NCBI GenBank assembly: GCA_036567745.1
Contig: DATCTW010000045.1
Coordinates: forward strand, 74,471-138,470
Source of the DNA: Ignavibacteria bacterium
GTDB lineage: Bacteria; Bacteroidota; Ignavibacteria; DATCTW01
Direction of reading: 5' to 3'
DNA length: 64,000 nt
Below, piece by piece: positions 1-35,831 of the stretch. The notes under the pieces are model-generated. The model was not told the origin of the DNA and did no database searches. It saw only the letters and a program-made list of their open reading frames with translations. Each line of letters begins with the position of its first letter. Position 1 is the first letter of the stretch. The position numbers were made by a program, and so were the translations under genes.

Positions 1-201
1 ATGTCTCTCTTTGAATAGCTTTTTGAAGTGGTTTTAATCCCTTTCTTTGCGAAAACAAAGTCATAATTTATCTCTCCATTACTGAGGCAATTTTATACAA
101 CAGCTCGCAAGTTGTTGAAGACGGACCAAAGGTGGATTTTGGAAGAGGAGCGATAGGGAACAACTCCCAGCAACTTGCTGTTATCGAAAGTTGTGCCAAA
201 A

Positions 202-993
202 TCATATTACATCAAACAATGTTCTTTGTTTTTCTGATTTTATCAAATTATTATTTATTTCTTTTGTTTTTCCTTCTAATCTTTGTAGTATAGTTGTATA
301 GTATTCTTTTGAGATTTCAATAGTAATATAATTTCTCTTTAATTTTTTTGCTACATATGCCGTAGTTCCAGTCCCACCAAATGGATCTAATATAATATCC
401 TTTTCATTAGAACTTGCTTTAATTACTAATTCTAATAAATCCTCAGGCATCTGACAAGGATGCTCACCTATTCGCTCTTTAAAAGTTCCACAAACTCTTG
501 AAAATTGCCATACATCATCCGGTACCTTTCCTAATGGATTAGCTCTTTTATCGTTATAAATTAATTGTCTAGCTGATGGAATTCTTATATCATTATCATT
601 AAAAATAAAATTTTCTTTATCTTTAACAAAATAAAGTATATGAGTATGAGATCTATTAAATTTTTTTCTTTGATTTTGTCCAAAAGTATAATACCAAATA
701 ATCCAGTTCCTAAAATAAAATCCTTTCTTTTTGAGAATTATATTTATTTCAGCAGCAAATTCATCTCCTATAGCAATATAAATTGATCCATTATTTTTTA
801 AAATTCTGTAACATTCACTAATCCATCTATCAGACCATTTATAATATTCATCATAAGGCATATTGTCATTATGCAAATCATATTTTATTCCTATGTTAAA
901 AGGTGGATCAGCGAATATTAAATCAACAGAACCTTTTGGGATATTATTCATAATTTCTATACAATCACCTAAATATACTTTATTTATTTCCAA
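202..993 (-). CDS. Type II DNA methyltransferase, beta-class, likely N6-adenine (N4-cytosine not excluded)
   Basis: Motif IV ADPPF lies near the N-terminus and an AdoMet motif I-like DPFGGTGTT near the C-terminus; this is the permuted beta-class order. Length is 263 aa. The gene overlaps the upstream nuclease ORF by 14 nt on the same strand. Confidence 0.85.
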   Translation of the reverse strand: MEINKVYLGDCIEIMNNIPKGSVDLIFADPPFNIGIKYDLHNDNMPYDEYYKWSDRWISECYRILKNNGSIYIAIGDEFAAEINIILKKKGFYFRNWIIWYYTFGQNQRKKFNRSHTHILYFVKDKENFIFNDNDIRIPSARQLIYNDKRANPLGKVPDDVWQFSRVCGTFKERIGEHPCQMPEDLLELVIKASSNEKDIILDPFGGTGTTAYVAKKLKRNYITIEISKEYYTTILQRLEGKTKEINNNLIKSEKQRTLFDVI

Positions 994-1864
994 TATTTTC
1001 TTCTCCTCCTATATTAAATAATTCACACGGATTAATTTTAAATTGTAACTTGGTTGGATCTGGGGTTCCTCCTTTTCTTTGGAGGGTAATTCTGCCAATA
1101 TACAAACTACCTCGTGGTGAAATTTTTATTTCACCACTACCAAAAAAATTAATAGCAGTATTAATATCTTTAAGAATCCATGTTGTCGTATTTTCTTTTT
1201 TGTTAAACCGAGTTATTAAAATCCAATTAGCTGATAACCCTCCTCTTCCTTTTAGAATATCATTTACAATCAATAATCGATTATTTTCAAAAAAATTAAT
1301 AATTTTTTCTTGTATATTTTTAGGCATTTCATTAAAAAATATTCTTCTCTTGTCTTTTAACTTTATTTTTCTAATTTTGTTATTAAATAATTCTGGTTTA
1401 TTTTCTCCAGTAAAAAGTTTTAACCAAAAAGCAATTTCATCACAAAAATTCCACATTTTTTTATATTCATCAACAGATCTTTTATCAATTTGATTATAAT
1501 TAGCATCAGAATTTGCTTTTTTCAATGAAATATTTTCAATTTTTAAAATATTCCCAATCTTAATTCTAATTTTTATTTGAGCATCTGCTTTTTTGAATTT
1601 GATTAACTCTTCAAAATCATCTTCTTTTAATTCATATTCTGCTAATTTTTTTATATTAATTGTAGTTGGAATTTGAACAGCATCAACTGAAGTAATTTTA
1701 TTAACATTGTAACCCATAATTTCAAGCCATAATTTAGCTTCTTCATCTTTTAACCAATTATTAAATTTTTTGCAGATTTCAATTTCGTTTGCAAATCCAC
1801 CTTTAGCAGTAATAGATCCTATTTCTCTTCTATTCATTTTTAACCTATTTTGATTTTGGTACAA
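980..1864 (-). CDS. Putative Type II restriction endonuclease partnered with the downstream methyltransferase
   Basis: The ORF sits directly upstream of the MTase on the same strand with a 14-nt overlap, as expected for an R-M operon. I recognise no family motif. The called start at 1864 is a TTG; an ATG at 1837 (MNRREIGS...) is an alternative start. Confidence 0.5.
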   Translation of the reverse strand: MYQNQNRLKMNRREIGSITAKGGFANEIEICKKFNNWLKDEEAKLWLEIMGYNVNKITSVDAVQIPTTINIKKLAEYELKEDDFEELIKFKKADAQIKIRIKIGNILKIENISLKKANSDANYNQIDKRSVDEYKKMWNFCDEIAFWLKLFTGENKPELFNNKIRKIKLKDKRRIFFNEMPKNIQEKIINFFENNRLLIVNDILKGRGGLSANWILITRFNKKENTTTWILKDINTAINFFGSGEIKISPRGSLYIGRITLQRKGGTPDPTKLQFKINPCELFNIGGEENIGNK

Positions 1865-1962
1865 TTCCCACAGAACTCCTTCATAGACGACAGTGTCGCA
1901 TTTCTTCCATATATGTATGGATAAAGGGCGATATCATCTATCCAACTTTTTAATTTAATCAT
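1840..1962 (-). CDS. Small upstream ORF (40 aa, MIKLKSWIDDIALYPYIYGRNATLSSMKEFCGNCTKIKIG), copy 1
   Basis: ATG at 1962 (minus) is preceded by AGGAG 6 nt upstream. The stop TAA (1840-1842) lies 2 nt before the ATG at 1837 of the nuclease gene. A paralogous copy sits at 3923-4015. Not in the ORF track because it is under 60 aa. Confidence 0.3.
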   Translation of the reverse strand: MIKLKSWIDDIALYPYIYGRNATLSSMKEFCGNCTKIKIG

Positions 1963-1985
1963 GTTTAATCTCCTTGTAAGATTTT
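1866..1985 (-). repeat. Duplicated leader segment A (RBS plus N-terminus of the small ORF), copy 1; about 80% identical to 3920-4037
   Basis: Direct alignment of aactccttcatagacgacagtgtcgcatttc...catgtttaatctccttgtaag against 3920-4037. Confidence 0.8.
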
Positions 1986-2123
1986 TTCTAAGTTGTAATA
2001 GATAAAAGATTTAAATCTATTATTGCTGTATTTTTTTAAAAGGAGTTCTTTTCTTAAATCTTCAAAGTTATAAACAGATAAATTTACCACTTAACTATAT
2101 TTTACACTTTTATTTATATTATA

Positions 2124-2188
2124 ATTTTACAAAAAAAAATCTGGAAAAGCAATATTTTTATGAATAGTATTTTCGATGAAGTGATTAT
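2124..2188. repeat. 65-bp block B (attttacaaaaaaaaatctggaaaagcaatatttttatgaatagtattttcgatgaagtgattat), copy 1
   Basis: Base-for-base identical to 4253-4317. It has the same orientation and the same relative position upstream (minus-strand sense) of segment A. Confidence 0.85.
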
Positions 2189-2225
2189 TAAAATGGATCG
2201 ATAGCTAATATTCGGTAACTTGCAG

Positions 2226-3266
2226 TTAGACGTTGGCCATCTCTTTTTTTTCTATTATTAAATTAATTATTTCTTTTAAAATTTCTAAAAAAACTTCAAT
2301 TTCTTTTTCACTGTAATCTTTGTTTATTAACCATTTTAGATTATCACCTGCATTAGTAAATAATCCGGTTTTTTCTAATTTATTTCTATAAATATCAACA
2401 ATTTTTTCTGAATCTTCAACTTTTTTTATTATATTTTCAAAACCAGTATAAATACTTTGTTTAAATACACAATTAGGAGGATAACCAAATAATAAAGCAA
2501 TTTTTTCATTATTGAAAATAGTATTTAATGAAAATCCTTTTGAACCCCAAATAAAATGTAATTTTTTAGATTTTGCAAATTCAAATAATTTTGAAAAAAC
2601 TTTCTGTCCATTTTTATCGAGGGATTTGATAAACTCATTTTCATTAACTTTTGGTAGTGAGGCAGATTTAATTTCTTGTTTTTTATATTCTTCATCACCA
2701 ATTACATAATCTAATGTAATTATTTTTTCGCCTGATTTTGTTTGAAAATATTTAAATTCAAGGCAATTTATATTAATTCCATTTTTTCTTAAAAAAGTTG
2801 CGGTTTGTTTTATTTCTTTTGTAATATTTTGAGCAACAATTAATAAAATTAATTTTTTATTGAATGATACATTTTCATTATTTTGAAAAAATTGTTGATG
2901 ATAATCTTGGAGATCAACTTCATCCCCAAAGTAATTTTTAAATATATCGTTTAGTTGGCTGTAATCTAAATTTTCAATAAATGACGCATATTCTAATATT
3001 TGAGCAACAGTATCTCTCGGAGTTCTATCTCTTTTCAATTCAATAATAACAGTATTTCCGTTTTTATCAACCCCTAATAAATCAATAAATGAATTTAAGT
3101 TGGTAGTAACTTGTCTGCCAATAATTAAAACATTACTTTTTTCAAAAAAATATTCAGGATTTTTTTCTAATAGTATTTCTAAATCTTGCTCAATATTATC
3201 TTTTTTAAATAATTCTTCTTTATATTCTGATAATTTTCCATCTTTATTGATTGTAAATAATTTCAT
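2226..3266 (-). CDS. NucS/DUF91-like PD-(D/E)xK nuclease-domain protein with an uncharacterized C-terminal domain
   Basis: Residues ~45-100 (VLIIGRQV...IDLLGVDKNGNTVIIELKRDR...VAQILEYASFI) match the RecB-like nuclease core of DUF91/NucS: E/D...D...ELK...QxxxY. The remaining ~230 aa are unrecognised. The gene lies between two R-M systems. Confidence 0.55.
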   Translation of the reverse strand: MKLFTINKDGKLSEYKEELFKKDNIEQDLEILLEKNPEYFFEKSNVLIIGRQVTTNLNSFIDLLGVDKNGNTVIIELKRDRTPRDTVAQILEYASFIENLDYSQLNDIFKNYFGDEVDLQDYHQQFFQNNENVSFNKKLILLIVAQNITKEIKQTATFLRKNGININCLEFKYFQTKSGEKIITLDYVIGDEEYKKQEIKSASLPKVNENEFIKSLDKNGQKVFSKLFEFAKSKKLHFIWGSKGFSLNTIFNNEKIALLFGYPPNCVFKQSIYTGFENIIKKVEDSEKIVDIYRNKLEKTGLFTNAGDNLKWLINKDYSEKEIEVFLEILKEIINLIIEKKEMANV

Positions 3267-3455
3267 TTATATCAACTCCAAAAAGTGGTGGTATGTATTT
3301 AACTTTTGGGGGCTTTGCATTTGGGAGAGTTTCAAAGCACAAAACATTCAAACAAGCAGAGACTTTGATAGAAGCACAAAGCTTTATTTAATCACTGAAC
3401 CACCACTTATAAGTAAGTTGTGTTGTAAGCCGTTTTTATTCGTCCATTAAATGCT

Positions 3456-3780
3456 CTAAGTCGTTTTTTTTTCGTTTCCAATTCCTTTTGGATTTGGCCC
3501 AAATACATTTATTCCAATTTCACTATCAGCGAAAAGCATCCATAAAAAGTAAAATGGAATAATTTGATACCAACCATTATTACCTATGTCATGGCATCTT
3601 TTTGCACCTTGTGATAGCAAAAACCAAATGGCTGGAATTGATAGTAAGTACATAATGTCTTCTTCTAAATCAGCATACAGGATAAATAGATAAGCTATAA
3701 AATTGTAAGCAAAATAATATTACTTAGCCAGAATTCAGTTCTTGTGATACGTCCTTCAAATGAAAATGGTTTTTTAAACA
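3456..3780 (-). pseudogene. DUF805-family small membrane protein gene disrupted by a frameshift
   Basis: The N-terminal piece MFKKPFSFEGRITRTEFWLSNIILLTIL ends in a stop. The rest continues in another frame: ...AYLFILYADLEEDIMYLLSIPAIWFLLSQGAKRCHDIGNNGWYQIIPF...GPNPKG, which is the DUF805 RRxHDxGxSGWW...GPN signature. The frame switch is near 3700-3715. Confidence 0.5.
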
Positions 3781-3922
3781 TAGCTTTTTGATCCTAATTG
3801 TTAAACATTTAGTCTTTTATGTAATTACTTTTTGTAAAGTCTGCATGTATAAACCTCAATTTTATCAAGTGTTAATTTGTCTCTGTGTTTGTCTAGTTCG
3901 CATAAGCTGTCTTTCAAAAAGG

Positions 3923-4015
3923 CTATAACTCCTTCATAGATGACAGTATCGCTTTTTGTCCACATATGTATGGATTAAGGGCGATGTTATCTATCCAACT
4001 CATAAGCTTAATCAT
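3923..4015 (-). CDS. Small upstream ORF copy 2 (30 aa, MIKLMSWIDNIALNPYICGQKAILSSMKEL)
   Basis: Paralog of 1840-1962 with an AGGAG RBS. A premature stop makes it shorter than copy 1. It lies upstream of the DUF805 pseudogene. Confidence 0.25.
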   Translation of the reverse strand: MIKLMSWIDNIALNPYICGQKAILSSMKEL

Positions 4016-4252
4016 GTTTAATCTCCTTGTAAGGTTTGGTCTAAAGGGTCTTTTATCCTTACGATGTTTCTTGATTTCATAAACAAATATTTTTTTAAGC
4101 AATGTGTATTAAAATATAACAAGGGTTTTTGGATATAAATAATAATACTCTCTATATATTATTTATACCTTTCAACATTTTTTTTTCTTTAAGATATAAT
4201 GAAGAGTTGTTTACTGCTTTCCTTTTTTCAATTTTATTTTTTTTATGTTATT

Positions 4253-4317
4253 ATTTTACAAAAAAAAATCTGGAAAAGCAATATTTTTATGAATAGTATT
4301 TTCGATGAAGTGATTAT
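4253..4317. repeat. 65-bp block B, copy 2
   Basis: Identical to 2124-2188. Confidence 0.85.
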
Positions 4318-4473
4318 GAAAAATGTAGCTCGAAGAGTTAATATATAGTATAATTTCGATAAAGAGATCACCAAAAAAGTGAAGAGATAAAATGCGAAAA
4401 AGTATTTTATTGTTGGTATAGATTTATTTTCTATTGTTCAATTTCTTATTAAAGGCAGGACTTTAATTTTTAT

Positions 4474-7113
4474 TTATCCAAAGCTCTCTTCAATAATCTT
4501 TTTTTCTTCTTCTGTTATACCATAAATTTGATAGACAAGCTCATCAATTTCTGCATCGGTTTTTTTTATTTCTTCTTCAATTTTTGCTCTTTCATCTGTC
4601 TTCTTGTCTCCGATTTCGTTAAGGCGTTTGTTGAGAGAAAGCATTTTATCAACAAAATGGATTATTTTATCTTGTTCAGCAATAGACAATATTTTAATAG
4701 GAAATTTTTTTGCATTAGCTATTAATATTTTTTGAAAAAGATTTTTTGTAGGGTCTAAATATTTCTCTTTGTGATAGTAAGTTATTAATTTAGAGTTTAA
4801 TATAGCGAGAATATATTTTATTTTAACTTTAGTTTCATCTTTTGACAAAATATTAAATCCTATTTGCGAATTATATAGTTCCTCATTTGTATAACCTGCG
4901 TATATTCTTGGTGGTTTTCCGCTGATTATTTGCCTCACAACAATACGAGGTTTTGTAAAGAATCTCTTTTCTCTCGGAGCGCCTAACCAATTACCATAAC
5001 TAATATATTCTTTTTTATCCCAGTAAATACCATATCTAATAATATTTTCTCCAGAAAGTAGAGGTTTAAAGGTTTCATTCTTTTTTGTTTGAGAATGAAA
5101 AACCCTATTTTTTATTTGTTGTTCAGAATGTCCTTTATATTTATCATATGGGGTTAGACCAAGTGAAAAATCACATATTTCTATAAGATTTGTATTTTTC
5201 TCTTCTATTTTCGCGAGTATCTTTTTTACAATTGTATTTATTGTAATGTTAAAGTTAAAGTTTTCAGCTTCCCATACATTTTGATTGTAATATGTAATTT
5301 TTGGACAATTATCTTTTTTAATCCTGTTAATTGATATTTCTCTAGGATAAAGATAGACTTCACATTCTTCTGATTTCTTTTTCTTAGTTTTTTTATAAAT
5401 CAAAATAACTGTCTCAATTTTAACTCCCTCAAAAATATTATCTGGTAATCTTACAATCTTTTTAAGATTAGTATTAAATAATAACAATTTTCTTATTTTG
5501 GTATAAGACTCGTTATACAGTATTGAATTAGGTATAATAAAACCAAAGTAGCCCCCATCCTTTAATAAAGCTAAAGATTTTTCAACAAAAGTAGAATACA
5601 AATTCATTCTATTTTCTACAGTATTATAATTTTCAAAAAGGAATTTTACTATTTTAGGATCAAGTTGTTTTATATCAACATACGGTGGATTCCCAATTAC
5701 AACATCAAACCCACCTTCTTGCATAACTTTTTTAAATTCTTCTTCCCATTTAAAAGCTTTATCTCCTGCTATTGAGGGGTCATCAATTAATGAGTTCCCG
5801 CATTTTATGTTTTCCTGAAGTAATGGAAGGCGTTGCCCTTTTTCTGCAATCTTTAACAAAAGGTTAAGCTGTGCTATCTCTACCGCCTGTTTATCTAAAT
5901 CCACACCGAAAATGTTATTTTTGAGTATTTTTACTTTTGATGTGAATGGCAGACCTGTTTTAAAATCTATTTGTGTCTGTGAATAGTTTTTATCATGCTT
6001 CGCATAATATTCATTCAAAACATCGAAAGCTTTTATCAAGAATGAGCCAGAGCCACAAGCAGGATCTAAAACCCTTATTTTTTCAGGATTAACTTTTTTT
6101 TCTTTAAGCAGTTCCCCCAAAGTATTCCTTACGATATAATCTACAATATAAGTGGGAGTATAATAAATTCCTTGCTCTTTTCTGTGTGCGTGGTTTTCTG
6201 TAAGCTTTGCTCTTTTCTCACTTTTCTTTAAGATATGGCCAAGATACTGCTCGTAAATGTTACCTAAAATATCTGCTTCAATGGCTGAAAAATCATAAGA
6301 AACAGATTTGTCTTTTGTAAAATAAAGTCCTTCAATAATTTCGTGCAAAACTTCGTTGTCTATATCCAAATTGTCGCATAAATGATTTGCAAAAATTTTG
6401 CTGTTATAATTTTTGTCAAAATAGGCAAAAACCTCTCTCAAACTTTTTATTAACTGCCCTCTGCCTTTGCTTTCCCATTCCCTAAAGCTGGAAATCAAGG
6501 TTTTTGCTTCAAGCTCCCTATCTTCGCAGTTTCTGATAAAAATTAATCTGTCTAAAATTCTTTGAACAGCTTCATCTAAATCTTCTTCTGTGAGGTTTTT
6601 GTTTAATTTAGTTATATTCTTTAAAAGCAATTCCCTGAATCTTGTAAAATCTGCCAAAAGCTGTTTATCAACAGAAATCTTTTTTGTTTTCTTACCCCAT
6701 TTCTCTGCCTCTTTATCTATCAATCCCTGTTCAAAACTTTCTTTTGATAAAAGAGACAATTCGCTGAACCTATCTAAAAACTCCTGGCAGGGAATTGTTT
6801 TAAGATGATTCTGCAATGGATTAGAAGTTTTCCATTCAGCATTAAAGATTTTTACGCTTTCAAAGTTAGTAAGAATAGCCCAAGTGCAACCTTTATGCCA
6901 AGCATAATTTATTGCCTGTTCAATAAATTTAGGATTGTCCAAATCTTCTTTTAGAGATTTTGCTTCCAAAAAGAATTTTGGAATACCGTTAATTCTGAAA
7001 CCATAATCAACTCTTTTTTTGGAAACTTTTTCTTCAGCAGTAACCTCGTTTGAATCTTCAGTATTCCACCCTAACGCACGAAATAGAGGTAGAATAAAAT
7101 CCTTTTTAGTCAT
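4474..7113 (-). CDS. Type IIG/IIL single-chain restriction-modification enzyme (N-terminal PD-ExK nuclease, gamma-class N6-adenine MTase, C-terminal target-recognition region)
   Basis: N-terminus VDYGFRINGIPKFFLEAKSL is a D...EAK nuclease motif. Motif I is VLDPACGSGSFL and motif IV is VVIGNPPYV. The 879-aa size is comparable to MmeI-type enzymes. No separate S subunit, R subunit or BREX partner genes are nearby. Confidence 0.75.
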   Translation of the reverse strand: MTKKDFILPLFRALGWNTEDSNEVTAEEKVSKKRVDYGFRINGIPKFFLEAKSLKEDLDNPKFIEQAINYAWHKGCTWAILTNFESVKIFNAEWKTSNPLQNHLKTIPCQEFLDRFSELSLLSKESFEQGLIDKEAEKWGKKTKKISVDKQLLADFTRFRELLLKNITKLNKNLTEEDLDEAVQRILDRLIFIRNCEDRELEAKTLISSFREWESKGRGQLIKSLREVFAYFDKNYNSKIFANHLCDNLDIDNEVLHEIIEGLYFTKDKSVSYDFSAIEADILGNIYEQYLGHILKKSEKRAKLTENHAHRKEQGIYYTPTYIVDYIVRNTLGELLKEKKVNPEKIRVLDPACGSGSFLIKAFDVLNEYYAKHDKNYSQTQIDFKTGLPFTSKVKILKNNIFGVDLDKQAVEIAQLNLLLKIAEKGQRLPLLQENIKCGNSLIDDPSIAGDKAFKWEEEFKKVMQEGGFDVVIGNPPYVDIKQLDPKIVKFLFENYNTVENRMNLYSTFVEKSLALLKDGGYFGFIIPNSILYNESYTKIRKLLLFNTNLKKIVRLPDNIFEGVKIETVILIYKKTKKKKSEECEVYLYPREISINRIKKDNCPKITYYNQNVWEAENFNFNITINTIVKKILAKIEEKNTNLIEICDFSLGLTPYDKYKGHSEQQIKNRVFHSQTKKNETFKPLLSGENIIRYGIYWDKKEYISYGNWLGAPREKRFFTKPRIVVRQIISGKPPRIYAGYTNEELYNSQIGFNILSKDETKVKIKYILAILNSKLITYYHKEKYLDPTKNLFQKILIANAKKFPIKILSIAEQDKIIHFVDKMLSLNKRLNEIGDKKTDERAKIEEEIKKTDAEIDELVYQIYGITEEEKKIIEESFG

Positions 7114-7527
7114 CTCCTCATTGTATTTACTGACTCTTTTTTCTTCTACAACTTTGTCATATTTCTCTAAAAGATTTCTGATTTCTTGTTTTATAGTTTC
7201 CTCCCAGAATAAATTGTTTATATAAATAATATTTTATAACCCAAAAATCAAGGAAAAGAATATCCCCTTTAATTTTTTATCAGTTACAACTTTTAAAGAG
7301 TAGCTGATTCACTATAAAAAAATATTAATAAATATATTTTTTTAACTAAACTTTCTATATATAATAAAGTTAAATAAAACTAATAGATTGGAATATTTTG
7401 GGGCATTTACAAGGTTTCAATATTAGAAATATAGATTAAAAATAACATTGATCAAAAAAAATATTTAAATATTATTAGTATAAAACTTATTAAATAACAG
7501 ATTATATACTTTATAGGGAGATTTTTT

Positions 7528-9159
7528 ATGAATTTTAAAAATTTATCACTATCAGCAAAAGTTTTGGCTGGTTTTATAATTATTGCCTTGATAGCATCAA
7601 TTAATACTTACATTAATTTATTATCAGCTAAAGCCAGTAATAACATAACACAGCAAATCATCAAAATCAGAACACCTAAAATTATTGATTTACTAAATAT
7701 AAAATTCAATATTTCAGAAATAAAATCTTATAGAAGAACATTTATTTCACGAGAAATGTCTATAAATGATAGAGAGAAACAATATGGTAAAATGGAGAAT
7801 AATTTTATATCTTTAAGAAAATCTTATGATAGCTATGATAAAACAGAAAAAAGGGAATTTGCTTATAAAAACTGGGAATTATTTAAAACTAATTTTAAAA
7901 TATGGGAACAACTCCATAATAAATTCATTTCAAAATCAAAGGAACTTGATAATGCATTAAAATTAAACCATAGTAATGTTGATAATTTATACAAAGAATT
8001 AGCGCAAATAACATTAGTTGAATTGGCAGAATATACTTCTAAAATGGAGAGTATTATTGATGAATTAGTAAATTATAATTTTGAAATGAATAAACAGGAA
8101 AGCGATTTAGCAGATAAAAAAATAAGTAATACTAGTACTATAACCATTATTTTAGCTATTATATTATTTATTATTGCAATTTCGTTAGGTTTATATATTT
8201 CAAGAAATGTTATAAAAAAGCCAATATCTGATTTAATAAATGCAATAAAAAAAGTGATACAGGGTGATTTTACAACACAAATAGAGATTAAAAATAAAGA
8301 TGAAATCGGAAGAATATCTGAAATGATAAATGATTTGATAAAATCGAGAAAAGATGAAATTACAGATTTACTTAAAAGAAGTGAAACAATTATAAATGCA
8401 AGCAAAAGACTGTTGAATGTTAGTATAAATGTACAGGAAAATTCTGAAAAATTAAATGAACAGACTTCCATTACAGCGGCATCAAGCGAACAGGTTTCGA
8501 CAAATATTTCTACAGTATCAAGTGCGGCAGAGGAGATGGCTTCAAGTGTAAAAGAAATTGCAAAAAATACAAATACTGCCTCATCAATATCAAATGATGC
8601 TGCAAGTAAAGCAACAGTTGCTGGTGAAGTAATAGATAGACTTGGAAAAAGTTCATCAGAAATTGGTAATATTGTTAAAGCAATAAACACAATAGCAGAA
8701 CAAACAAACCTTTTAGCTCTTAATGCAACAATTGAAGCAGCAAGAGCCGGAGAGAGTGGTAAAGGTTTTGCAGTTGTAGCTAACGAAGTAAAAGAGCTTG
8801 CCAAAGAAGCTGGTAAAGCTACAGAAGATATTTCCAATAGAATTAAAATGATACAGGAAGAGAGCAATAATGCAATAAATGTTATAAAAGAAATTATTGA
8901 AAGCATCACACAAATTAATGACATATCAAATACTATTGCTTCGGCTGTTGAGGAGCAAACTGTAACAACTTCAGAAATTACCCGAAACTTATCTGAAGCC
9001 ACTAAAGGAGCTTCTACAGTTGCGGAAAGTAATGCTGAAATTTCTAAAACAGTAGAAGATTACAGAAATATGTCAACACAAATAAAAGATGATGCGCATA
9101 ACCTTGAAGAGATAGCTACTTCACTAAAGCAACATCTAGTTAGTAGTTATAAAATTTAA
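7528..9159 (+). CDS. Methyl-accepting chemotaxis protein
   Basis: Contains an N-terminal TM segment, a second TM segment plus HAMP region around residue 200, and an MCP signalling domain ([33 protein letters not shown]). Confidence 0.9.
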
Positions 9160-9171
9160 TGAATTTTCTTT

Positions 9172-9205
9172 CCCTGCAACTTACAGGTTGCAGGGAAATT
9201 TTATT
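9172..9205 (+). terminator. Rho-independent terminator after the MCP gene
   Basis: Hairpin ccctgcaacttacaggttgcaggg followed by a T-rich tail. Confidence 0.6.
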
Positions 9206-9425
9206 TAAAAATATTAAACTTTTATATTAATAATATCATACCATTTTGTAGTATAAAAAATAAGATTTTTTTTATCTCACTTTTAACTTTCTGCTACAAG
9301 TCTGAGAAGCAAGCTTTAAAGTTTCATAAATTTAGATTTTTTTACTGACTAGTTTTAATAATTTTTACAAAAAAAGTAAAATTAATCAGAAATTTAATAT
9401 GTAGGTTTAAGAATGGGATATTTAG

Positions 9426-9499
9426 TGGGCCCTGTAGGACTCGAACCTACGACCCACAGATTATGAGTCTGTTGCTCTAACCAACTGAGCTAAGGGCCC
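9426..9499 (-). tRNA. tRNA-Met (anticodon CAT; elongator Met or Ile2/lysidine type not distinguishable)
   Basis: The reverse complement GGGCCCTTAGCTCAGTTGGTTAGAGCAACAGACTCATAATCTGTGGGTCGTAGGTTCGAGTCCTACAGGGCCCA folds as a cloverleaf with a GGTTCGAGTCC T-arm and a CAT anticodon. Confidence 0.85.
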
Positions 9500-9558
9500 G
9501 ATTCTTATCTTTTAGTTTTGTAATATAAAATATTTTTTTTGGATAATCAATAGAAAAA

Positions 9559-11064
9559 TTATTCTTTTATAATTTCCTTTATTGATTTTATACCTCTTCT
9601 GTTGAAATAAGGTATAAGGTGTCTTGAACTTGGGTTTTTAGAAGGTTTATAACCAAAATATTTTTCCTCCTCTTTCTGGGTCAACCACCCATTAAAGTGT
9701 TTAACTGCTTCCATACCAACTAATTGCCCAATTGAAAAATTAAATTCTTTATCAATTTCGTCAAGTGTTTTTACTTCTCTTTTACCATAGTAAATATCTT
9801 GCCATATTTTTTTTGCAATTTTTTTCATTATTTCTCGTAATTCGGTAATATTATAATCACTTATTGTAGTGAAAGGATGTTCAAGGTCAGGAAAATGTTT
9901 TATGCTAAGAATTTCTGCATTATCTAAATGAGCCAAAACAAATGCTTTTTCAATCATTTTTTCTAATTGTCTAACGTTTCCTTCCCAATCAAAAGTTTCC
10001 ATTTTTTTTAATACTTCATTATCGATATCAAGTATATTTTGATTTAAATAATGGTATTTAAAGAGAAAATATTTTACCAGAATTTTGATATCTTCTTTAC
10101 GTTCGTTGAGTGAGGGTAATTCGATTTTACAACCATCTAATCTATAAAACAGATCTTTTCTGAATTTGCCTTCTTCTACATATTTATAAATATCTACATT
10201 AGTTGCTGCTATTATTCTTACATCGTCAATATTAATTGTAGTATCTGATCCAATTGGTTGAATTTCTTTTTCCTGTAAAATTCTTAGTAGCTTAACTTGA
10301 AGGTATAATGGAAGTTCTCCAATCTCATCAAGAAATAGGACACCGCCTTTAGCTGATTTGAAAGCGCCATCTCTATCTTTTCTGGCATCTGTAAATGCTC
10401 CTTTTACATAACCGAATAATTCTGATTCAATTAATGTAGGAGGTATAGCAGCAATATTTAATCCAATAAACTTATTCCTTTTTCTTATTTGGCTGTACTT
10501 ATGTATTGATCTGGCAACTAATTCTTTTCCAGTACCGGTTTCGCCAAAAATAAAGACAATTGGAGGATTGTTTTCATGATCGACCTTTGCATAAAGTCTG
10601 ATTAATTTTTTAATATTTTTAATTTTTGCTGATTCACCTTTAAGAAAATTAGGATTTTCATCATTATCTTTTGCATATCTTAGAATGTGTTCTGCTTCTT
10701 CATAATCAATATTATCTTTAATAAAATAATCATAAATGTTTTTACCTGATAACCCTGATATTTCTAAAAATGTTTTTGGGGAATCATCAACAGTGAAAAT
10801 AATTACTTTTATATCTTTAAATTCTGAATTTTTTAATTGTAATAAAACATCCTTGCCTTGTAAAGATTGATTTTTAAAATTCAAATCAAGAATAATTATC
10901 TTAATATCTTTTTCTTTTTTTAGAATAGGTAAAACTTGATCGGAATATTTAGTCCAAATAAAATGGAATTCATCAGAGAAATATTTTTTAAATCTCTTTT
11001 CCCAATTGTTTTCAATGTATTCATCATCAGCACAAAGAACTTTTATCTTATTGTTTGAGTTCAT
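9559..11064 (-). CDS. Sigma-54-dependent transcriptional activator (receiver-like N-terminus plus AAA+ sigma-54 interaction domain)
   Basis: Walker A GETGTGKE, GAFTDA (the GAFTGA variant), Walker B VLFLDEIGEL and the arginine finger region are present. The N-terminal ~120 aa is receiver-like. No canonical Fis-type HTH is evident at the C-terminus. Confidence 0.8.
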   Translation of the reverse strand: MNSNNKIKVLCADDEYIENNWEKRFKKYFSDEFHFIWTKYSDQVLPILKKEKDIKIIILDLNFKNQSLQGKDVLLQLKNSEFKDIKVIIFTVDDSPKTFLEISGLSGKNIYDYFIKDNIDYEEAEHILRYAKDNDENPNFLKGESAKIKNIKKLIRLYAKVDHENNPPIVFIFGETGTGKELVARSIHKYSQIRKRNKFIGLNIAAIPPTLIESELFGYVKGAFTDARKDRDGAFKSAKGGVLFLDEIGELPLYLQVKLLRILQEKEIQPIGSDTTINIDDVRIIAATNVDIYKYVEEGKFRKDLFYRLDGCKIELPSLNERKEDIKILVKYFLFKYHYLNQNILDIDNEVLKKMETFDWEGNVRQLEKMIEKAFVLAHLDNAEILSIKHFPDLEHPFTTISDYNITELREIMKKIAKKIWQDIYYGKREVKTLDEIDKEFNFSIGQLVGMEAVKHFNGWLTQKEEEKYFGYKPSKNPSSRHLIPYFNRRGIKSIKEIIKE

Positions 11065-11896
11065 AGTTCAGAATTCCTATAATATTCTCAAGTTTGGTTT
11101 TAATATTATTTACAGTATCGGTTAAAGTATTTTTGTCATTAATTAGTTTATCATCAATTTTCTTATTATTTTTAAAATGTTCTATTAATTCATAAAGATT
11201 ATCAAGAAGTATTTTTAAATCATTTAAGTTTTGTCTTGTTTCAGCATCTATTATGGTTTTATTATTTTCTATAATGGTGTTTAGGGAATTAATTTTATCT
11301 AAAACATTATTTTTAAGAGTTGCTGGATCAAAAAATAGTTCTAATTTATTATTTTTAGGATTGTTGAGGTAATTATTGATACTTGCATTTAAATCAGGTA
11401 TTAATTGAGAAATTTTATTTAAAAGGTCATGTTTAAATGATCTTAATGATTTAATCAATTCAGAAAATTTTTCTTTTTTAAAGTTATCAGTAATTTTTAG
11501 TTTGGTTTTATCTAAAAAAATTTTCTTAATTTTTTCTGTATCAAATGGGTAATGTAGAAAATAATTTTTATCATATTTAAGCCATTTGTTTTTAAGATAG
11601 AATTTAATGTTTTCTTCATTTTCATATGAAAAGAAAACAATCTGATAATTTTCTCCAAATTTATGAAAGTTTGTTTTGATAAATTCTAAACCACCTCTTT
11701 CATACTCGTATTTAAAGGTATCATTTATAAAGCTTGTATTGATGAATAATATTACATCTTCTATGATATCAAATAGTTTATTTTGATTTTCGCTTTCGAT
11801 TAATTCAATTGAGAGTTCAGGAAAATGTTTTAAGATTTGTTGATAAAAAAAATTAGAATTATCTAAAATAATAGTTTTTCTTTGATCCATTAGCAA
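11048..11896 (-). CDS. Hypothetical protein (operon member)
   Basis: 282-aa ORF whose stop overlaps the downstream activator gene start by 17 nt. No recognised motif. Confidence 0.4.
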   Translation of the reverse strand: MLMDQRKTIILDNSNFFYQQILKHFPELSIELIESENQNKLFDIIEDVILFINTSFINDTFKYEYERGGLEFIKTNFHKFGENYQIVFFSYENEENIKFYLKNKWLKYDKNYFLHYPFDTEKIKKIFLDKTKLKITDNFKKEKFSELIKSLRSFKHDLLNKISQLIPDLNASINNYLNNPKNNKLELFFDPATLKNNVLDKINSLNTIIENNKTIIDAETRQNLNDLKILLDNLYELIEHFKNNKKIDDKLINDKNTLTDTVNNIKTKLENIIGILNYELKQ

Positions 11897-11898
11897 TA

Positions 11899-12558
11899 TT
11901 ATATTTTATTGATTAGTTGTTCGTATTTTAACGTAGATTTATTTATAAATTTTAGCATACTATCTATTTCAATTGAATTATCATTCTTAATAAAACTATC
12001 GAATGGTAAGATTTTATTATTACAGTTTAAAAGTTTTATAAATTTGCAGAATTCTTCATAAATATTAATAATTTCTGATAAAGACGAATGCTCATAATTA
12101 AAGATTATTTTTTTTCTATACTCAAATAATTTATCAAGGTTTAAGAACTTTTCACCAGGATATAAGTACTTAAAGTCTATATTTGCGAAATTGTTTTTTA
12201 ATAAAAAGATTAAAAAATCAGTAATTTGATTTTCTAATAAAGAATCATTTATTTCGCAGATATTCGACTCTATTAAATTAAATCCTTTTATACCTCCGCT
12301 ATAAAGAACAAGAGGAACAGAATATTTTTTAGCCTCAATGGTAAAAATTGGTTCAGAATAATCCCCAATGTTATCACTGCTATGAATAAAAGCTAGATTG
12401 TAATCATTTATTGGAAAAAACAAACCTTCATTGTTTTTGCGATTTTGTGATGCATGAATTGTAAGTTCGCTAATTGGGATTTCTTCTCTAATCGATTTTA
12501 CAATTCTTTGTATTCTTTTACCTGACTCTCCGCCATCAATTATTATTATTTTAAACAT
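11899..12558 (-). CDS. Hypothetical protein (operon member)
   Basis: 219-aa ORF with a 2-nt gap to the downstream gene and an 8-nt overlap with the upstream gene. Confidence 0.4.
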   Translation of the reverse strand: MFKIIIIDGGESGKRIQRIVKSIREEIPISELTIHASQNRKNNEGLFFPINDYNLAFIHSSDNIGDYSEPIFTIEAKKYSVPLVLYSGGIKGFNLIESNICEINDSLLENQITDFLIFLLKNNFANIDFKYLYPGEKFLNLDKLFEYRKKIIFNYEHSSLSEIINIYEEFCKFIKLLNCNNKILPFDSFIKNDNSIEIDSMLKFINKSTLKYEQLINKI

Positions 12559-13747
12559 TTAACAGTTCACCTGAAGAAGATTTTGGTTTAGGTAATAAAA
12601 ATGTTAAAGTAATTTTTAAATCTTTTAGATGATTACTATTGGTTGTTATATCATTATAAATATTATAAGAAATACCATTACCCTCATATATCACTGAACA
12701 ATATTTATCAAAAGCTTTTTTAATTGAAGATAAACCTGGAGTTAAATGCATAAAAGCTTCTTGAGGGTTAAAAGAGTTGCCATTAGCCTCTATAGTTAGA
12801 ATAACTTTAGAGTTTATTGATTCAACAGTAGTTTTTACATAATTATTTTGATCGAAGGTTTGAAAATTATGTCTTGCAATATTTTCGTAAATTGTTTTTA
12901 AACCAATTAATATTCTTTCTTTTTCGCAATAAATTCTGGGGATAGTTGTATTAATGTTATTAGTAACTTGAACGTTTTTATTAAATAATGGTTCCTGACA
13001 TGATTTTAAGATATCCTCTGTAAATTCTAATCTAAAATATGATTTAAAGGAAATCATTTCTTCTTGAGATGGGTATTCATATCGAATTTTATTTAGATAA
13101 TTCTCGATTAGTAATTTTGAATGCTCAGTGATATATTGTTTTTCTATAGAATTATTAAAAAAGTTAAAAGTCTGATCAAGATATTTTAACATTTTTTGAT
13201 GATCATAGTTAGAGTGGGTTAGCTTATAAAAACCGATATTTTCATCATTACCATAATTATAGGAATCAAAAAGTTTGAAGAAGAAAACAACAAGATTTAT
13301 TCTGTTTTTTAATACCTCATTAATGCAATTTTCCAAAGTTTCTTTAAAAAGTTCATTCATGTAGGCTTTTTTTAATCGATGATTAATCAAACCTTTCTTA
13401 ATAAATTCTTCTTCAATTTTAAATCTACTTGGGTCTTCTTCTTTTTGAGCAGAGTACCAAATAATTTGTGTTTGAGAATTAATTTCTTTTGCTTTTTTGA
13501 TTATTTCAAAACCAGCATTTTTATCTTCATTAAATTGGTTTTCAGAAAAGTCAATATCACAAACAACGATATCGAAATAATCATGTTTTCTTGAGGATTC
13601 AATTAATTTTGTAATAGCATCCTGAGCGGATTCACTTTCGTGAAAATCAGTATCATAGTTTGATGAAAAATAAAGGTTAAAATAATCTATAAAATCTTCT
13701 CTACAAGAAAGAAGATCTTCAGCAATTAAAATTTTAAGCTTTTCCAT
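12551..13747 (-). CDS. Response-regulator receiver domain fused to a GHKL/HATPase-like domain
   Basis: N-terminus KILIAEDLL...DIVVCDIDF...IIKKAK is receiver-like. The C-terminus VILTIEANGNSFNP...GLSSIKK resembles HATPase_c G1/G2 boxes, with no recognisable HisKA H-box. Confidence 0.55.
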   Translation of the reverse strand: MEKLKILIAEDLLSCREDFIDYFNLYFSSNYDTDFHESESAQDAITKLIESSRKHDYFDIVVCDIDFSENQFNEDKNAGFEIIKKAKEINSQTQIIWYSAQKEEDPSRFKIEEEFIKKGLINHRLKKAYMNELFKETLENCINEVLKNRINLVVFFFKLFDSYNYGNDENIGFYKLTHSNYDHQKMLKYLDQTFNFFNNSIEKQYITEHSKLLIENYLNKIRYEYPSQEEMISFKSYFRLEFTEDILKSCQEPLFNKNVQVTNNINTTIPRIYCEKERILIGLKTIYENIARHNFQTFDQNNYVKTTVESINSKVILTIEANGNSFNPQEAFMHLTPGLSSIKKAFDKYCSVIYEGNGISYNIYNDITTNSNHLKDLKITLTFLLPKPKSSSGELLNV

Positions 13748-16700
13748 TTTATTGGTATAAAAACATTAGTTGTAGTAAAATTGTTAATTCTATCTGGATA
13801 TACTTTCATATTCCAATTTAATCTTTCATTGCATCTTAGGATAACCTTTATTCCAAGGTGCTGGCTTTTTGACATTTTTATAGATTGATCTTCAATATTT
13901 TCATTGACTAATTTTTCCCATTCCTCAGATATTACTTTATTATTCTCTATTTGTAAGAGACAGTAATTATTGTCTATCATCATGGTTTTAATTTTAACAT
14001 AAGGAGAATCTTGATTGGTGTTTACAAAAGAATTTTTTAGTAAATCTTTTATTATAAGAGCGGATATTCTTTTTGAAGTTTCAATTGTAATAGTGTCATC
14101 TAATTCAAAAATAGGTTTTAAGTTTTTCACATTATTTTTATGTGTTAGATTCGAAAAACGAAGAGTATCAATTCCATCTTTAATTAAACGAACTTGTTCG
14201 TGTATGATATCACTTAAATTAATAGTACCAATATTTTTACTGATATCCTTAATATTAGAAAGGAAAAGATCAATAAGGTCTGATACCTCATTTAAGTAGT
14301 TCATTGATCTATCGATGTATTTGAAGATTTGTCTATCTTGCATGAACTTTTCAAATCTTGAAATATCGGGAATATACTTTTCTATATCATTTTTATTTTT
14401 TAGATGAGAATTTATTAATGAGATTGAGTTTTTTGATGCTCCAATATTTGTGTTTAAAGAGTGAGCTAATTGATCTATTAGTGTTTCCCATTCAGCTTTT
14501 TTGGCCAGGTCTTTGTTCTCTTCAATTTTTATTTCCATTGCTTTTTTGGCAAAATGATTAGATTCGAGGAAGAAAAAAGCACTTTGGCCATGATACTTCT
14601 GATATGAAATTATTTTATCTGCATATTCTTTTAGTAAATTAGAAAATCTTGAAAAGAAATTGTATCTATTTGCAGTGTTAATTGATAGTTCAGAATAAAT
14701 AAAAAGAGAAGATAAAAATTTTTTCTCCAATTGAAACGGATTATTGAAGTAAGAATTTATATCAGATAATTTTACTCTTTCTTTTATCTCAACTCCTCTT
14801 TCTTTTAAAAAAAGGAGTATCTCATTGTAAGTATTATCAAAAATCTCATTAGATGTATTTTCTTTTGAGTATACAAGATAAATCGATTTAAACAAATTCA
14901 AGTTTTTTATATTATCATATTGATATTTTAATAGCTCAGCATTTTCAGTAAATATGACACAAATTTTATTAATAATATCTTCAGATATAAAATTATTTTT
15001 GATGATTTCTATCTTATCATTTACTAAAGATTTGATAACGTTTTTTAAGTTCGTATTTTTATATGATATATTATTAATTACAATATCAATTGTCGATAGA
15101 TATTCTAATAATATTTCTTTATGATTTTCAGCTCTGAAATCAGATATTAATAATATTTTTTCAGGTTTATTGTTATATTCCCATAAAAAATCAATATATT
15201 CTTTTTGCCAGATATGAACTAAAGGGAATCGATTTTTGTAAAATTCATTTAGGGTACTATTAAACAAGTTATTTAAATTCTTGCTTTCCAGATTTATTAA
15301 ATCAAAGTAAATATCACAGACTTTTTGTTTTAACCATGAGGTTAATTCATACTCGTCTTTTATTTTTTCAGGGAATGGTAAGTTTTCAAAGAAGGATTTA
15401 ATAAAATGAAAACAATTCTCTTCAAATTTGTCATTCAAATAGCAAGTTTCAACTAATTCGGTAATTTGAAAGAGAAGATTATTTGAATTTAAATAATTAA
15501 GATACTCAACATAATCATAAGGTGTAATCCTGATAGTATTAAGTCTAATTACAATTAAGTGTTTATCAGGTAAAGAGTTGTTAAATATTGAAGGAGCTAT
15601 ACACCAAGCTATTGCTATCTTGTTTTTTTCATCTGCAATTTTAAAAGCAATTAAAATATCATTTTCATGAATAAGATTTTGAGAAAATGAATTTAATGGT
15701 TTTTTTTCAATAACTTTAGCTTTTATAATATCTGGGAAATTACCAAATCGAATTACCTCTTCGGTTATTACTGGTATGTAATCTGATTTTTGAATGAACT
15801 GGTCATAACTATTAATCGAATAACCTTTGTAATCTTTTCCAAGAAAAACTGAATTGATGATATCATTACTAGAGAAATGTTTTTGTTTTGTAATTTCGAG
15901 TTTCTTGTTAAAAAATTCTTTTCGATAAAAAAGAGGGTTTAAAACGCCAGCATTTAAAATTTCTTGTTTTTTTGGTAGATTCAACTCAATTTTGCCAACA
16001 TAAAAATTGTTATGTTGAGGATCAATTCCTATAAAACTGTTTTCGTATTTTCTGGATTCAATAATTTTGTTGAATTCATCAAATTTAGCTAAATCGAAGA
16101 GTAAGTCAATCTCTTCAAGAATATTTTTATCAACAATTAAATTTTTATCAATAGAGTTAAAGTCAATAGGATCAATTAATTTTGTTTGTGAATCTTCTTT
16201 TTTTAGTCCGCCATAATATTTAGAATCAAAATCCTCATTTTTTACCAAGCAATTTATAGTAAGAGAAATTGTGTCGATTTGTAAATTTTTTGAATATTTA
16301 GATTCAAGAAATTTTAATTTTAAATTATTAAAAAAATATGTTTTATGTTCGAAAAATCTTTGAGCTATCAGGCCATTTTTTCTAATAATTTCTCCATTAT
16401 GGTTAGGAGTATGATAATCAATATTAAAAATAACGCCAAAATTATTAATTAATGAATTTAAGATTGTGTTTGAAAGGAAATGGTTTTTTATATTTGTGAT
16501 TAGAATCTTTGTGTTTTCATTTGTTTCAAAATATTTATTAATAAGAGGCAGTTCGTTTTTTAATATTAAAATATCATGTTCATTCAGGTTTAGAGGTTGG
16601 TTAATTTCAATAATATTTAATATTGCTTCCAATTTATGAAGAAGATTGTAAAACAAACCAAGGCATAAACCTTTTACTATAGTAAGATTTTTTGTGTCAA

Positions 16701-17460
16701 ATGTGATTTTTTTTGGATATGAATTAGTAAAGAAAATAAAAGCAAATAACTCCAATTCAAGTGAATTGCAATAAATGGAACTACTTTTATTTATTCTTAG
16801 ACATTCGATGAACTTTGCTTCAACATACTTTGTACTTAATTTTTTCTCAAAAATAAATTGTTCTAATTCTTGATCTACTTTGATATTATTATTTTTATTT
16901 TTCGCCTCTTTCCCAATTTGAATTTCTGAAAAATCGAACTTTTGTAATTCTCTAATTATTACTGATAAATTTTCTTCTGAAATATTGAATAATGAGGGAG
17001 ATAAAATATGATACTTATTATTAAAGTTTGATATACAATTTTTGAATTCTTGAGTGTTTATTACTGTTGTAGTTTGAATTCTAATAAACCGCCTATCATC
17101 GAGTAGTTTTATAAGCAAAATATCAAAAAATATTTCTTCTAATTCGTTTGGGTTAATGATTGTACTCAAGAATTTTTTAAGATGAACTAGACGTTCAACT
17201 ACTCTAATTCTTTTTCTAGCAATTTGAATATCATAATTATATAATTCAAATTTCAGTATATCAATTTCTCGATTTGACACTATCGCATTTCTCCAGAAAG
17301 CTCTAACACTAAAAATAAACAAAATAGTAAAAAAAGTCAAATAAAATAAAATAATAATTTTTAGAATTGTAATGGTTTTGAATTTTATCTTTGCAAAAAG
17401 AAAAAATATTTTATATAATTTAAATAATAAATAGGAATAACTATGAGTAAAAGAGTTCAA
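13726..17460 (-). CDS. Very large (1244 aa) putative sensor histidine kinase with an uncharacterized ~950-aa N-terminal region
   Basis: TM segment near residues 25-55. The C-terminal ~250 aa carry an H-box-like LIDQLAHSLNTNIGASKNS and HATPase-like N/G boxes (LIIKDLLKNSF, IENN, QHLGIKVILR). The rest is unrecognised. Confidence 0.55.
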   Translation of the reverse strand: MNSFTHSYSYLLFKLYKIFFLFAKIKFKTITILKIIILFYLTFFTILFIFSVRAFWRNAIVSNREIDILKFELYNYDIQIARKRIRVVERLVHLKKFLSTIINPNELEEIFFDILLIKLLDDRRFIRIQTTTVINTQEFKNCISNFNNKYHILSPSLFNISEENLSVIIRELQKFDFSEIQIGKEAKNKNNNIKVDQELEQFIFEKKLSTKYVEAKFIECLRINKSSSIYCNSLELELFAFIFFTNSYPKKITFDTKNLTIVKGLCLGLFYNLLHKLEAILNIIEINQPLNLNEHDILILKNELPLINKYFETNENTKILITNIKNHFLSNTILNSLINNFGVIFNIDYHTPNHNGEIIRKNGLIAQRFFEHKTYFFNNLKLKFLESKYSKNLQIDTISLTINCLVKNEDFDSKYYGGLKKEDSQTKLIDPIDFNSIDKNLIVDKNILEEIDLLFDLAKFDEFNKIIESRKYENSFIGIDPQHNNFYVGKIELNLPKKQEILNAGVLNPLFYRKEFFNKKLEITKQKHFSSNDIINSVFLGKDYKGYSINSYDQFIQKSDYIPVITEEVIRFGNFPDIIKAKVIEKKPLNSFSQNLIHENDILIAFKIADEKNKIAIAWCIAPSIFNNSLPDKHLIVIRLNTIRITPYDYVEYLNYLNSNNLLFQITELVETCYLNDKFEENCFHFIKSFFENLPFPEKIKDEYELTSWLKQKVCDIYFDLINLESKNLNNLFNSTLNEFYKNRFPLVHIWQKEYIDFLWEYNNKPEKILLISDFRAENHKEILLEYLSTIDIVINNISYKNTNLKNVIKSLVNDKIEIIKNNFISEDIINKICVIFTENAELLKYQYDNIKNLNLFKSIYLVYSKENTSNEIFDNTYNEILLFLKERGVEIKERVKLSDINSYFNNPFQLEKKFLSSLFIYSELSINTANRYNFFSRFSNLLKEYADKIISYQKYHGQSAFFFLESNHFAKKAMEIKIEENKDLAKKAEWETLIDQLAHSLNTNIGASKNSISLINSHLKNKNDIEKYIPDISRFEKFMQDRQIFKYIDRSMNYLNEVSDLIDLFLSNIKDISKNIGTINLSDIIHEQVRLIKDGIDTLRFSNLTHKNNVKNLKPIFELDDTITIETSKRISALIIKDLLKNSFVNTNQDSPYVKIKTMMIDNNYCLLQIENNKVISEEWEKLVNENIEDQSIKMSKSQHLGIKVILRCNERLNWNMKVYPDRINNFTTTNVFIPIKWKSLKF

Positions 17461-35222: not shown

Positions 35223-35295
35223 GCTGGCGTAGCTCAGTTGGTAGAGCAGCTGACTTGTAATCAGCAGGTCAGGAGTTCAAGTCTCCTCGCCAGCT
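35223..35295 (+). tRNA. tRNA-Thr (anticodon TGT)
   Basis: GCTGGCGTAGCTCAGTTGGTAGAGCAGCTGACTTGTAATCAGCAGGTCAGGAGTTCAAGTCTCCTCGCCAGCT forms a cloverleaf with anticodon loop CTTGTAA. Confidence 0.9.
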
Positions 35296-35321
35296 CAGGT
35301 TCTTTAAATAAAAAAAGAAAT

Positions 35322-35405
35322 GGGTGGACGCCGGAGTTGGAGAGCCGGGGCGGACTGTAAATCCGTTGGCGAACGCCTTTGGGGGTTCGAATCCCTCGCC
35401 ACCCA
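35322..35405 (+). tRNA. tRNA-Tyr (anticodon GTA), long variable arm
   Basis: Anticodon loop CTGTAAA, long variable arm GGCGAACGCC and T-loop GGTTCGAATCC. The exact 5' end is uncertain by 1 nt because of an A-G mismatch at the acceptor base. Confidence 0.8.
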
Positions 35406-35417
35406 CAAAATTCTCCT

Positions 35418-35491: not shown

Positions 35492-35501
35492 CAGACCATA
35501 T

Positions 35502-35574: not shown

Positions 35575-35603
35575 CTTTATTAAAAATTGGAGTGTAAAAA
35601 AAA

Positions 35604-35753: not shown

Positions 35754-35758
35754 ATCTT

Positions 35759-35831
<73 letters not shown>

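Follow-up and report, generated by a model that had tools for sequence, protein, structure and literature searches.

What does a solitary gene for a NucS-like nuclease do between two restriction–modification (R-M) systems? The question is raised by a 64,000-nucleotide stretch of an Ignavibacteria bacterium genome (assembly GCA_036567745.1, contig DATCTW010000045.1, positions 74,471 to 138,470 of the forward strand; the whole of this stretch is hereafter called the window). Here, a complete stand-alone nuclease gene of the PDC-S11 type occupies positions 2226..3266 on the minus strand, as established from the list of open reading frames (ORFs), an exact database match and PADLOC. The ORF has exactly these boundaries, starts with ATG and encodes 346 amino acids followed by a stop codon. 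Its product is identical to HEY9187885.1, a database entry named 'endonuclease NucS domain-containing protein' from an Ignavibacteria metagenome-assembled genome. The reading that we favour, at a rough probability of 0.55, is that this protein is a stand-alone, single-polypeptide nuclease directed against mobile elements, in which a C-terminal domain directs or licenses cleavage following the logic of type IV restriction.

In the mechanism proposed, residues 1–195 would form a PD-(D/E)xK endonuclease of the NucS_C/Shedu clan with a complete active site, made up of D62, E76 and K78, which would serve metal-dependent phosphodiester hydrolysis, together with E26 and Q89xxxY93. Residues 206–346 would act as a targeting or sensor module, most likely by binding to invading DNA at, for example, a modified base, an end or an unusual structure, and this binding would direct or license cutting by the nuclease half. 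The targeting role is proposed because the active site is intact, because domains are exchangeable in both directions, and because the C-terminal domain is basic and evolves faster than its partner; the lack of a cognate methyltransferase or partner gene and the type IV associations of sibling domains point the same way.

An N-terminal nuclease module with an invariant active site

The nuclease module (residues 1–195; 2682..3266, minus strand), hereafter the N-module, was assigned to the NucS_C-like PD-(D/E)xK nucleases from Pfam, NCBIfam and PDB matches, with its boundary taken from phmmer alignments. Pfam NucS_C matched residues 27–99 with E=7e-7, which exceeds the gathering score, and both P. 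abyssi NucS (2vld) and T. kodakarensis EndoMS (5gke) aligned with residues 26–98, E26 pairing with E127 of the P. abyssi enzyme. Within the module, the catalytic core (residues 26–93; 2988..3191, minus strand) reads E26...D62...E76-L-K78...Q89xxxY93. Relatives of the protein were numerous, with 1494 database homologs at E<=1e-3 and 3187 among 1.8 billion cluster representatives, while a PHROGs search with the protein returned no family match. Residue conservation was assessed in a set of 48 close homologs (A1) and a set of 57 distant relatives with about 20–35% identity (A2): E26, D62, E76, K78, Q89 and Y93 were invariant in the first set and constituted the sole invariant columns in the second.

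An earlier note on this DNA, made from the sequence alone, had described an E...D...ELK...QxxxY core near the N-terminus, in a domain order the reverse of that in NucS, and had made its nuclease proposal depend on conservation of the catalytic triad. The peptide strings that it quoted are present in the 346-amino acid ORF, and its description of the core agreed with the Pfam, NCBIfam and 2vld matches and with the invariance of the catalytic residues in all 48 close and 57 distant relatives; the reversed order was likewise found, since the nuclease starts at about residue 20. The same note had assigned 230 amino acids to an unknown C-terminal domain. An uncharacterised domain does exist at this end, but it is smaller, at about 140 amino acids (206–346). 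Relatives with unrelated C-termini aligned by phmmer from residue 1 to about 195, and the structural model placed a two-helix insert at about residues 100–137 and, after it, residues 140–189 as the fourth strand of the core plus a helix and a beta-hairpin; about 100 amino acids of the supposed unknown domain therefore belong to the nuclease fold. The module is acidic, with an isoelectric point (pI) of about 4.9 (family mean 4.7), and is followed by a low-confidence linker (residues 196–205; 2652..2681, minus strand), the predicted local distance difference test score (pLDDT) being below 50 for residues 194–204.

The similarity to the NucS catalytic domain, with which the motifs E...D...ExK...QxxxY are held in common, together with the database label 'endonuclease NucS', would also fit a housekeeping DNA-repair endonuclease, that is, a NucS/EndoMS with shuffled domains and with mismatches or branched DNA as its substrates. 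We consider this very improbable. Only 80 residues align, and the two NCBIfam NucS equivalogs, which covered residues 18–99 (model positions 122–200), scored 39.1 and 24.6 bits, far below their cut-offs of 216 and 252, respectively; no profile assigned the whole protein to a housekeeping family, the outcome that the earlier note had named as refuting its proposal. Searches of Pfam and NCBIfam gave no match to the N-terminal DNA-binding/dimerisation domain of NucS, and, in contrast to NucS/EndoMS, the nuclease lies at the opposite end of the protein, carries the two-helix insert and is encoded by a mobile island gene. NucS/EndoMS has a conserved C-terminal sliding-clamp-binding tail, whereas the C-termini of the 48 homologs, variable in both length and sequence, revealed no common motif of this kind upon inspection. 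A repair role also fits poorly with the patchy, laterally transferred distribution of the family and with the strain-variable island in which the gene lies.

An exchangeable C-terminal domain

The C-terminal domain (residues 206–346; 2229..2651, minus strand), hereafter the C-domain, was delimited as a basic alpha/beta domain by an AlphaFold2 (AF2) domain model, Foldseek, profile searches and conservation. Modelled alone, it is predicted with confidence to fold (pLDDT 93.9, predicted template modelling score (pTM) 0.87) with the topology a-a-b-b-b-b-a-a-b-b-a, and it is uncatalogued in Pfam, PADLOC and the PDB. A profile of the domain found nothing in Pfam or among PDB sequences, the best E-value of its model against the PDB in Foldseek was only 0.15, and none of the PADLOC models covers it. 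By sequence and by Foldseek, it showed no likeness to the SRA, PUA/EVE/ASCH, YTH or winged helix reader folds. A degenerate second nuclease fold was considered and rejected, as hhalign of the N-module against the C-domain gave a probability of 0.3%.

The charge and the rate of evolution of the two halves differ. With a pI of 8.8, the C-domain is basic, the family mean being 8.3 vs. 4.7 for the nuclease module. Its mean pairwise identity was 27% compared to 41% for the N-module, which was the better conserved half in 91% of pairs. Conservation within the C-domain was concentrated in the motifs W240-GSKGFSLN and FGYPP..KQSIYTGF, and the most conserved positions were W240 (invariant), G241, G244, F245, S246, Y262, Q270, Y273 and K282.

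The architecture of the family was surveyed in the best 150 of the 3187 cluster representatives. The N-module was joined to this C-domain in 44 of the 150, and to other C-terminal regions of about 110–170 amino acids in 57 full-length proteins; a further 13 were C-domain-only matches. Stand-alone C-domain proteins were rejected as a class, because the end of the N-module is still present in the short 'C-only' matches, which appear to be fragments. The other C-terminal regions of the 57 proteins fell into 29 BLAST clusters (14 with at least two members and 15 singletons), and Pfam put a name to few of them, DUF5655 (6), DUF7669 (3) and DUF4268 (2), besides which there are at least 25 further C-terminal domains. 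When compared by hhalign with these clusters, the C-domain gave real matches only to divergent versions of itself, in addition to one weak match (probability 36%) to a cluster with a GapR-like element; the DUF4268-type C-terminal regions gave no match (probability 0.2%). DUF4268 itself is present in the sibling proteins P0150, P0183 and E. coli WP_032328845.1.

Exchange was also found in the other direction, as the C-domain (at 38–49% identity) is joined to other nuclease chassis. In P0213, a singleton, it is fused with an HSDR_N nuclease; in P0221 it accompanies a T5orf172 domain that matches PADLOC PDC-S57 and PD-Lambda-1; and in P0269 it accompanies a RAMA/DUF4357-like domain that matches PADLOC PDC-S14. 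The latter two architectures recur in independent assemblies. It is a tentative possibility, which we rate as rather doubtful at present, that the C-domain is an undescribed portable nucleic-acid reader fold guiding at least four unrelated nuclease chassis to modified or non-self DNA.

Relation to known systems and proposed mode of action

Six PADLOC models of PDC-S11 matched the protein, the best being PDLC04916 (E=3.6e-45), and the best alignments ended at residues 203–238 of 346. The archetypes of this candidate family are matched end to end: E. coli WP_032328845.1, which consists of the N-module and DUF4268, by PDLC04913 at 1.8e-182, and a Klebsiella plasmid 'DUF91' protein was found by PDLC04916 at 3e-108. 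Like these, the Ignavibacteria protein is the product of a single gene, of about 350 amino acids, in a defence-island or R-M setting, and its N-module is homologous to that of the E. coli plasmid protein (29.5% identity over residues 3–196); unlike the archetypes, which carry DUF4268 or another C-domain, it has a different C-domain. The nuclease module is thus the known one of candidate family PDC-S11, and what is new is a C-domain not catalogued in the databases searched.

The sibling domain DUF4268 offers a link to direct restriction, since it repeatedly accompanies type IV enzymes of the GmrSD kind as an accessory and is a predicted DNA binder (PMC4619093, PMC5714182). It is also found in MdgA, a validated single-protein, modification-dependent phage-defence nuclease reported in 2025 from functional metagenomics in Cell Host Microbe (PMC12366544). 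T4 DNA is degraded by MdgA when glucosylated, whereas T4-GT7 DNA is not; the enzyme also gives protection against Mu, loses its activity with the E77A substitution, and has a C-terminal DUF4268 that was proposed to be the substrate recogniser (PMC12366544). In the E. coli PDC-S11 protein the glutamate of the ExK motif is E77 (IIE77-N-K79), which corresponds to E76 in the Ignavibacteria protein. MdgA is comparable as a single-protein defence nuclease that has its catalytic glutamate at residue 77 and an accessory domain at its C-terminus, whereas the Ignavibacteria protein has no DUF4268 match, and its specificity need not be for glucosylated hydroxymethylcytosine or a Mu-type modification. With type IV systems at large (GmrSD, McrA/SRA-type and RAMA/DUF4357-associated enzymes) it has in common that the nuclease stands alone, lacks a cognate methyltransferase and is joined to an exchangeable accessory domain, and fusions link its C-domain into one network with RAMA/DUF4357, T5orf172 and HSDR_N. 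It differs from them in a C-domain that resembles no known reader fold, and modification dependence is only hypothetical for this protein.

A second comparison leads to the main rival of the targeting reading. The closest structural homolog of the Shedu nuclease is EndoMS/NucS, and the nuclease occurs with 79 families of swappable sensor domains (10.1101/2023.08.10.552793, 10.1101/2023.08.10.552762). Shedu (SduA, DUF4263) is thus also a one-protein immune nuclease with a NucS/EndoMS-related PD-(D/E)xK core and many alternative sensor domains. Its sensors are N-terminal and its nuclease C-terminal, and the architecture described here, in which a conserved nuclease is likewise combined with swappable domains, is its mirror image. 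By analogy, the C-domain could be a regulatory sensor that holds an indiscriminate nuclease off, for instance in an autoinhibited oligomer, until an infection cue arrives; free DNA ends, phage proteins and stress signals are conceivable cues, and cleavage of host DNA might then give abortive infection. Membership of the core in the Shedu clan is consistent with such gating, as are the weak matches of SduA_C to 6 of the 57 distant N-modules, the common pattern of a conserved, NucS-like cutter with hypervariable appendages, and an AbiJ-like gene that in sister strains lies two genes downstream, past the HinP1I-like R-M pair. Conversely, a Pfam scan of the protein itself gave no match to SduA_C/DUF4263 at E<=1, the domain order is reversed, and the sibling domain DUF4268 is tied to direct, modification-dependent restriction. 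We regard gating as a less likely but serious alternative, and the present data do not separate it from targeting. The earlier suggestion of a defence effector or abortive-infection component holds as far as a single-gene unit in a defence island with a PDC-S11 match is concerned; nothing favours abortive infection over direct restriction.

Full-length homologs with 55–65% identity were found in Spirochaetota, Bacteroidota, Latescibacteria, Actinomycetota, Bacillota, Thermotogota, Omnitrophota, Desulfobacterota and Proteobacteria, as well as in the archaeal groups Methanoperedens, ANME-1, Methanoregulaceae and Thorarchaeota. Such identity across many bacterial phyla and archaea indicates lateral transfer. 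The neighbourhoods of the gene were surveyed by collecting the two nearest ORFs of at least 150 amino acids on each side in 48 loci, which yielded 136 proteins. No conserved partner gene was found among these, no Pfam family occurred more than three times, and BLAST clusters linked only near-identical genomes, from which we infer that the gene works alone. Recurrent downstream ORFs of about 250 amino acids were considered as a partner and rejected, as they are not homologous to each other. The neighbours included integrases, insertion sequence transposases, R-M genes, Cas3/Cas8, PDC-S05/S13, SIR2+DUF87 and SocA.

The same survey bears on whether the protein could be the restriction endonuclease of a classical type II system, with a methyltransferase encoded next to it as its partner. 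N6_N4 methyltransferases do adjoin the gene in the window and in locus L003, but they already have restriction endonucleases of their own (HinP1I-like and ThaI, respectively), and such methyltransferases accounted for only 2 of the 136 neighbours in the other loci, with no methyltransferase conserved. This is the least probable of the explanations considered. A purely selfish nuclease, serving plasmid or phage competition, addiction or degradation of host DNA rather than host defence, is somewhat easier to reconcile with the data and still unlikely. It would fit the occurrence of N-module homologs on 347 plasmids (219 of them from Klebsiella), a match to Gp54 of phage G, two phage records with weak N-module homologs and strong horizontal transfer. 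The close homologs in the 48 loci are, however, chromosomal and lack conserved mobile-element partners, there was no PHROG match, and the plasmid copy that was examined, the E. coli PDC-S11 archetype (387 amino acids; NZ_CP022167.1 6625-7788, on a 113-kb plasmid), is in a defence context, namely within a type I R-M operon with the gene order hsdM-hsdS-X-hsdR. Taken together, repair, type II and purely selfish roles are much less likely than targeting or gating.

Gp54 of the jumbo phage Bacillus phage G (BFVD G3MBC4, 296 amino acids) was a full-length structural match, with a Foldseek E-value of 5.6e-10 at 14% identity. This suggests that phages also carry the two-domain nuclease type.

Several considerations weigh against the targeting reading. 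PDC entries in PADLOC are unvalidated candidates (PMC12813430), and the defence role, including any anti-phage function, was deduced from context and from membership of PDC-S11, a candidate family only. MdgA quite probably belongs to the N-module family, an identification drawn from a coincidence in residue numbering (E77) and not from sequence. The C-domain has no detectable similarity to known DNA- or modification-binding domains, so that its ligand is a guess; a protein or a small molecule would be just as plausible. In the full-length AF2 model the nuclease half was only moderately confident (pLDDT 50–75, pTM 0.47), which leaves the domain geometry unsettled. Finally, many homologs adjoin housekeeping genes and not obvious islands.

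The local island and the wider family

In the window, the nuclease gene has a type II R-M pair downstream and a type IIG enzyme upstream. The pair consists of a HinP1I-like restriction endonuclease of 285 amino acids (980..1837, minus strand; Pfam R-HINP1I, E=5e-56), with a likely ATG at 1837, the start called in the sister strains (L086), and its partner, an N6/N4 DNA methyltransferase (202..993, minus strand; Pfam N6_N4_Mtase, E=3e-61). Directly upstream of the nuclease gene lies a frameshifted DUF805 pseudogene (3456..3781, minus strand), recognised from Pfam and its reading frames, in which a stop codon closes the 28-codon N-terminal piece and the 65 amino acids of the C-terminal piece, the sole DUF805 match, are in another frame. 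Further upstream follows the type IIG R-M enzyme (4474..7113, minus strand), with HSDR_N, Eco57I/N6_Mtase and TaqI_C domain matches, which is strain-specific and absent from the sister strains. The placement between two R-M systems and downstream of a decayed gene that had been read from the letters thus corresponds to what was found.

The backbone is common to sister strains of this species, which also have the block formed by the nuclease gene, the HinP1I-like endonuclease and the methyltransferase, followed by the AbiJ-like gene. In place of the chemotaxis gene described below, the type IIG gene and the DUF805 remnant, they hold an AlwI-type restriction endonuclease, two N6_N4 methyltransferases and a 332-amino acid protein without a Pfam match. 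Homology to the sister strains by blastn extended over window positions 1–3295 (97.8%) and 9406–12000 (99%), so the strain-variable segment is 3296–9405 (vs. 4951–9971 in L086). From these limits, it starts 20 nucleotides from a tRNA-Met gene (9425–9499) and ends 29 nucleotides upstream of the nuclease ATG, so that strain-specific DNA must contain the nuclease promoter. A likely ribosome-binding site, GGAG (3276..3279, minus strand), was read 9 nucleotides 5' of the ATG, its function being presumed. A promoter and terminator scan did not discriminate in DNA so rich in AT, with 22 sites compared to 18.5 expected, and returned no terminators.

The DUF805 pseudogene and the nuclease gene are flanked as a block by two copies of an intergenic segment recognised by sequence comparison, one between the nuclease gene and the HinP1I-like gene (1874..2193) and one at 3927..4322; the sister strains hold only the downstream copy and lack the second. 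The copies have one identical core of 54 nucleotides and blocks that are 86–95% identical, with a divergent, AT-rich middle, and an Rfam search with the segment found no family. The repeated segment may mark a cassette junction or have been left as a scar by recombination. Each copy also contains a short ORF, at 3925–4014 and at about 1841–1961 (both minus strand), encoding 30 and 40 amino acids, respectively, with the consensus MIKL[MK]SWID[ND]IAL.PYI.G..A.LSSMKE.. and a strong AAGGAG-N7-ATG start, which may represent a leader peptide, the remnant of a gene or nothing at all. A separate 98-bp segment upstream of the type IIG gene (7201–7298) is 88% identical to a segment upstream of the unrelated AlwI endonuclease gene in the sister strains (L086 5093–5190); the two genes may have a promoter in common, or the segment may mark the boundary of a cassette.

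The variable island also holds a complete gene for a methyl-accepting chemotaxis protein (4HB_MCP, HAMP and MCPsignal domains; 7528–9159, plus strand), which lies beside the R-M cassette, is absent from the sister strains and is unusual cargo for a defence island. Elsewhere in the window, four tRNA genes lie within about 600 bp (35223–35831, plus strand). The cumulative GC skew has its minimum near 7–8 kb. A steady rise begins at about 17.4 kb, the meeting point of the divergent genes 13726–17460 (minus strand) and 17443–20808 (plus strand); the pattern could stem from gene orientation or from proximity to a replication origin.

For the PDC-S11 candidate, the analysis provides a concrete, testable mechanism. 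The family to which the Ignavibacteria protein belongs combines one conserved NucS-like cutter with dozens of interchangeable C-terminal domains and has spread laterally in bacteria and archaea. If the C-domain were indeed a reader, the NucS-like, HSDR_N, T5orf172/GIY-YIG-like and RAMA-associated chassis would be served by a new type IV-style specificity module; this domain and its sister C-domains would then mark out a large superfamily of single-protein immune nucleases of an 'inverted Shedu' kind. If the C-domains of the family are specificity or sensor modules, they would constitute a natural library for the features of foreign DNA that bacteria recognise, and a source of new modification- or structure-specific nucleases.

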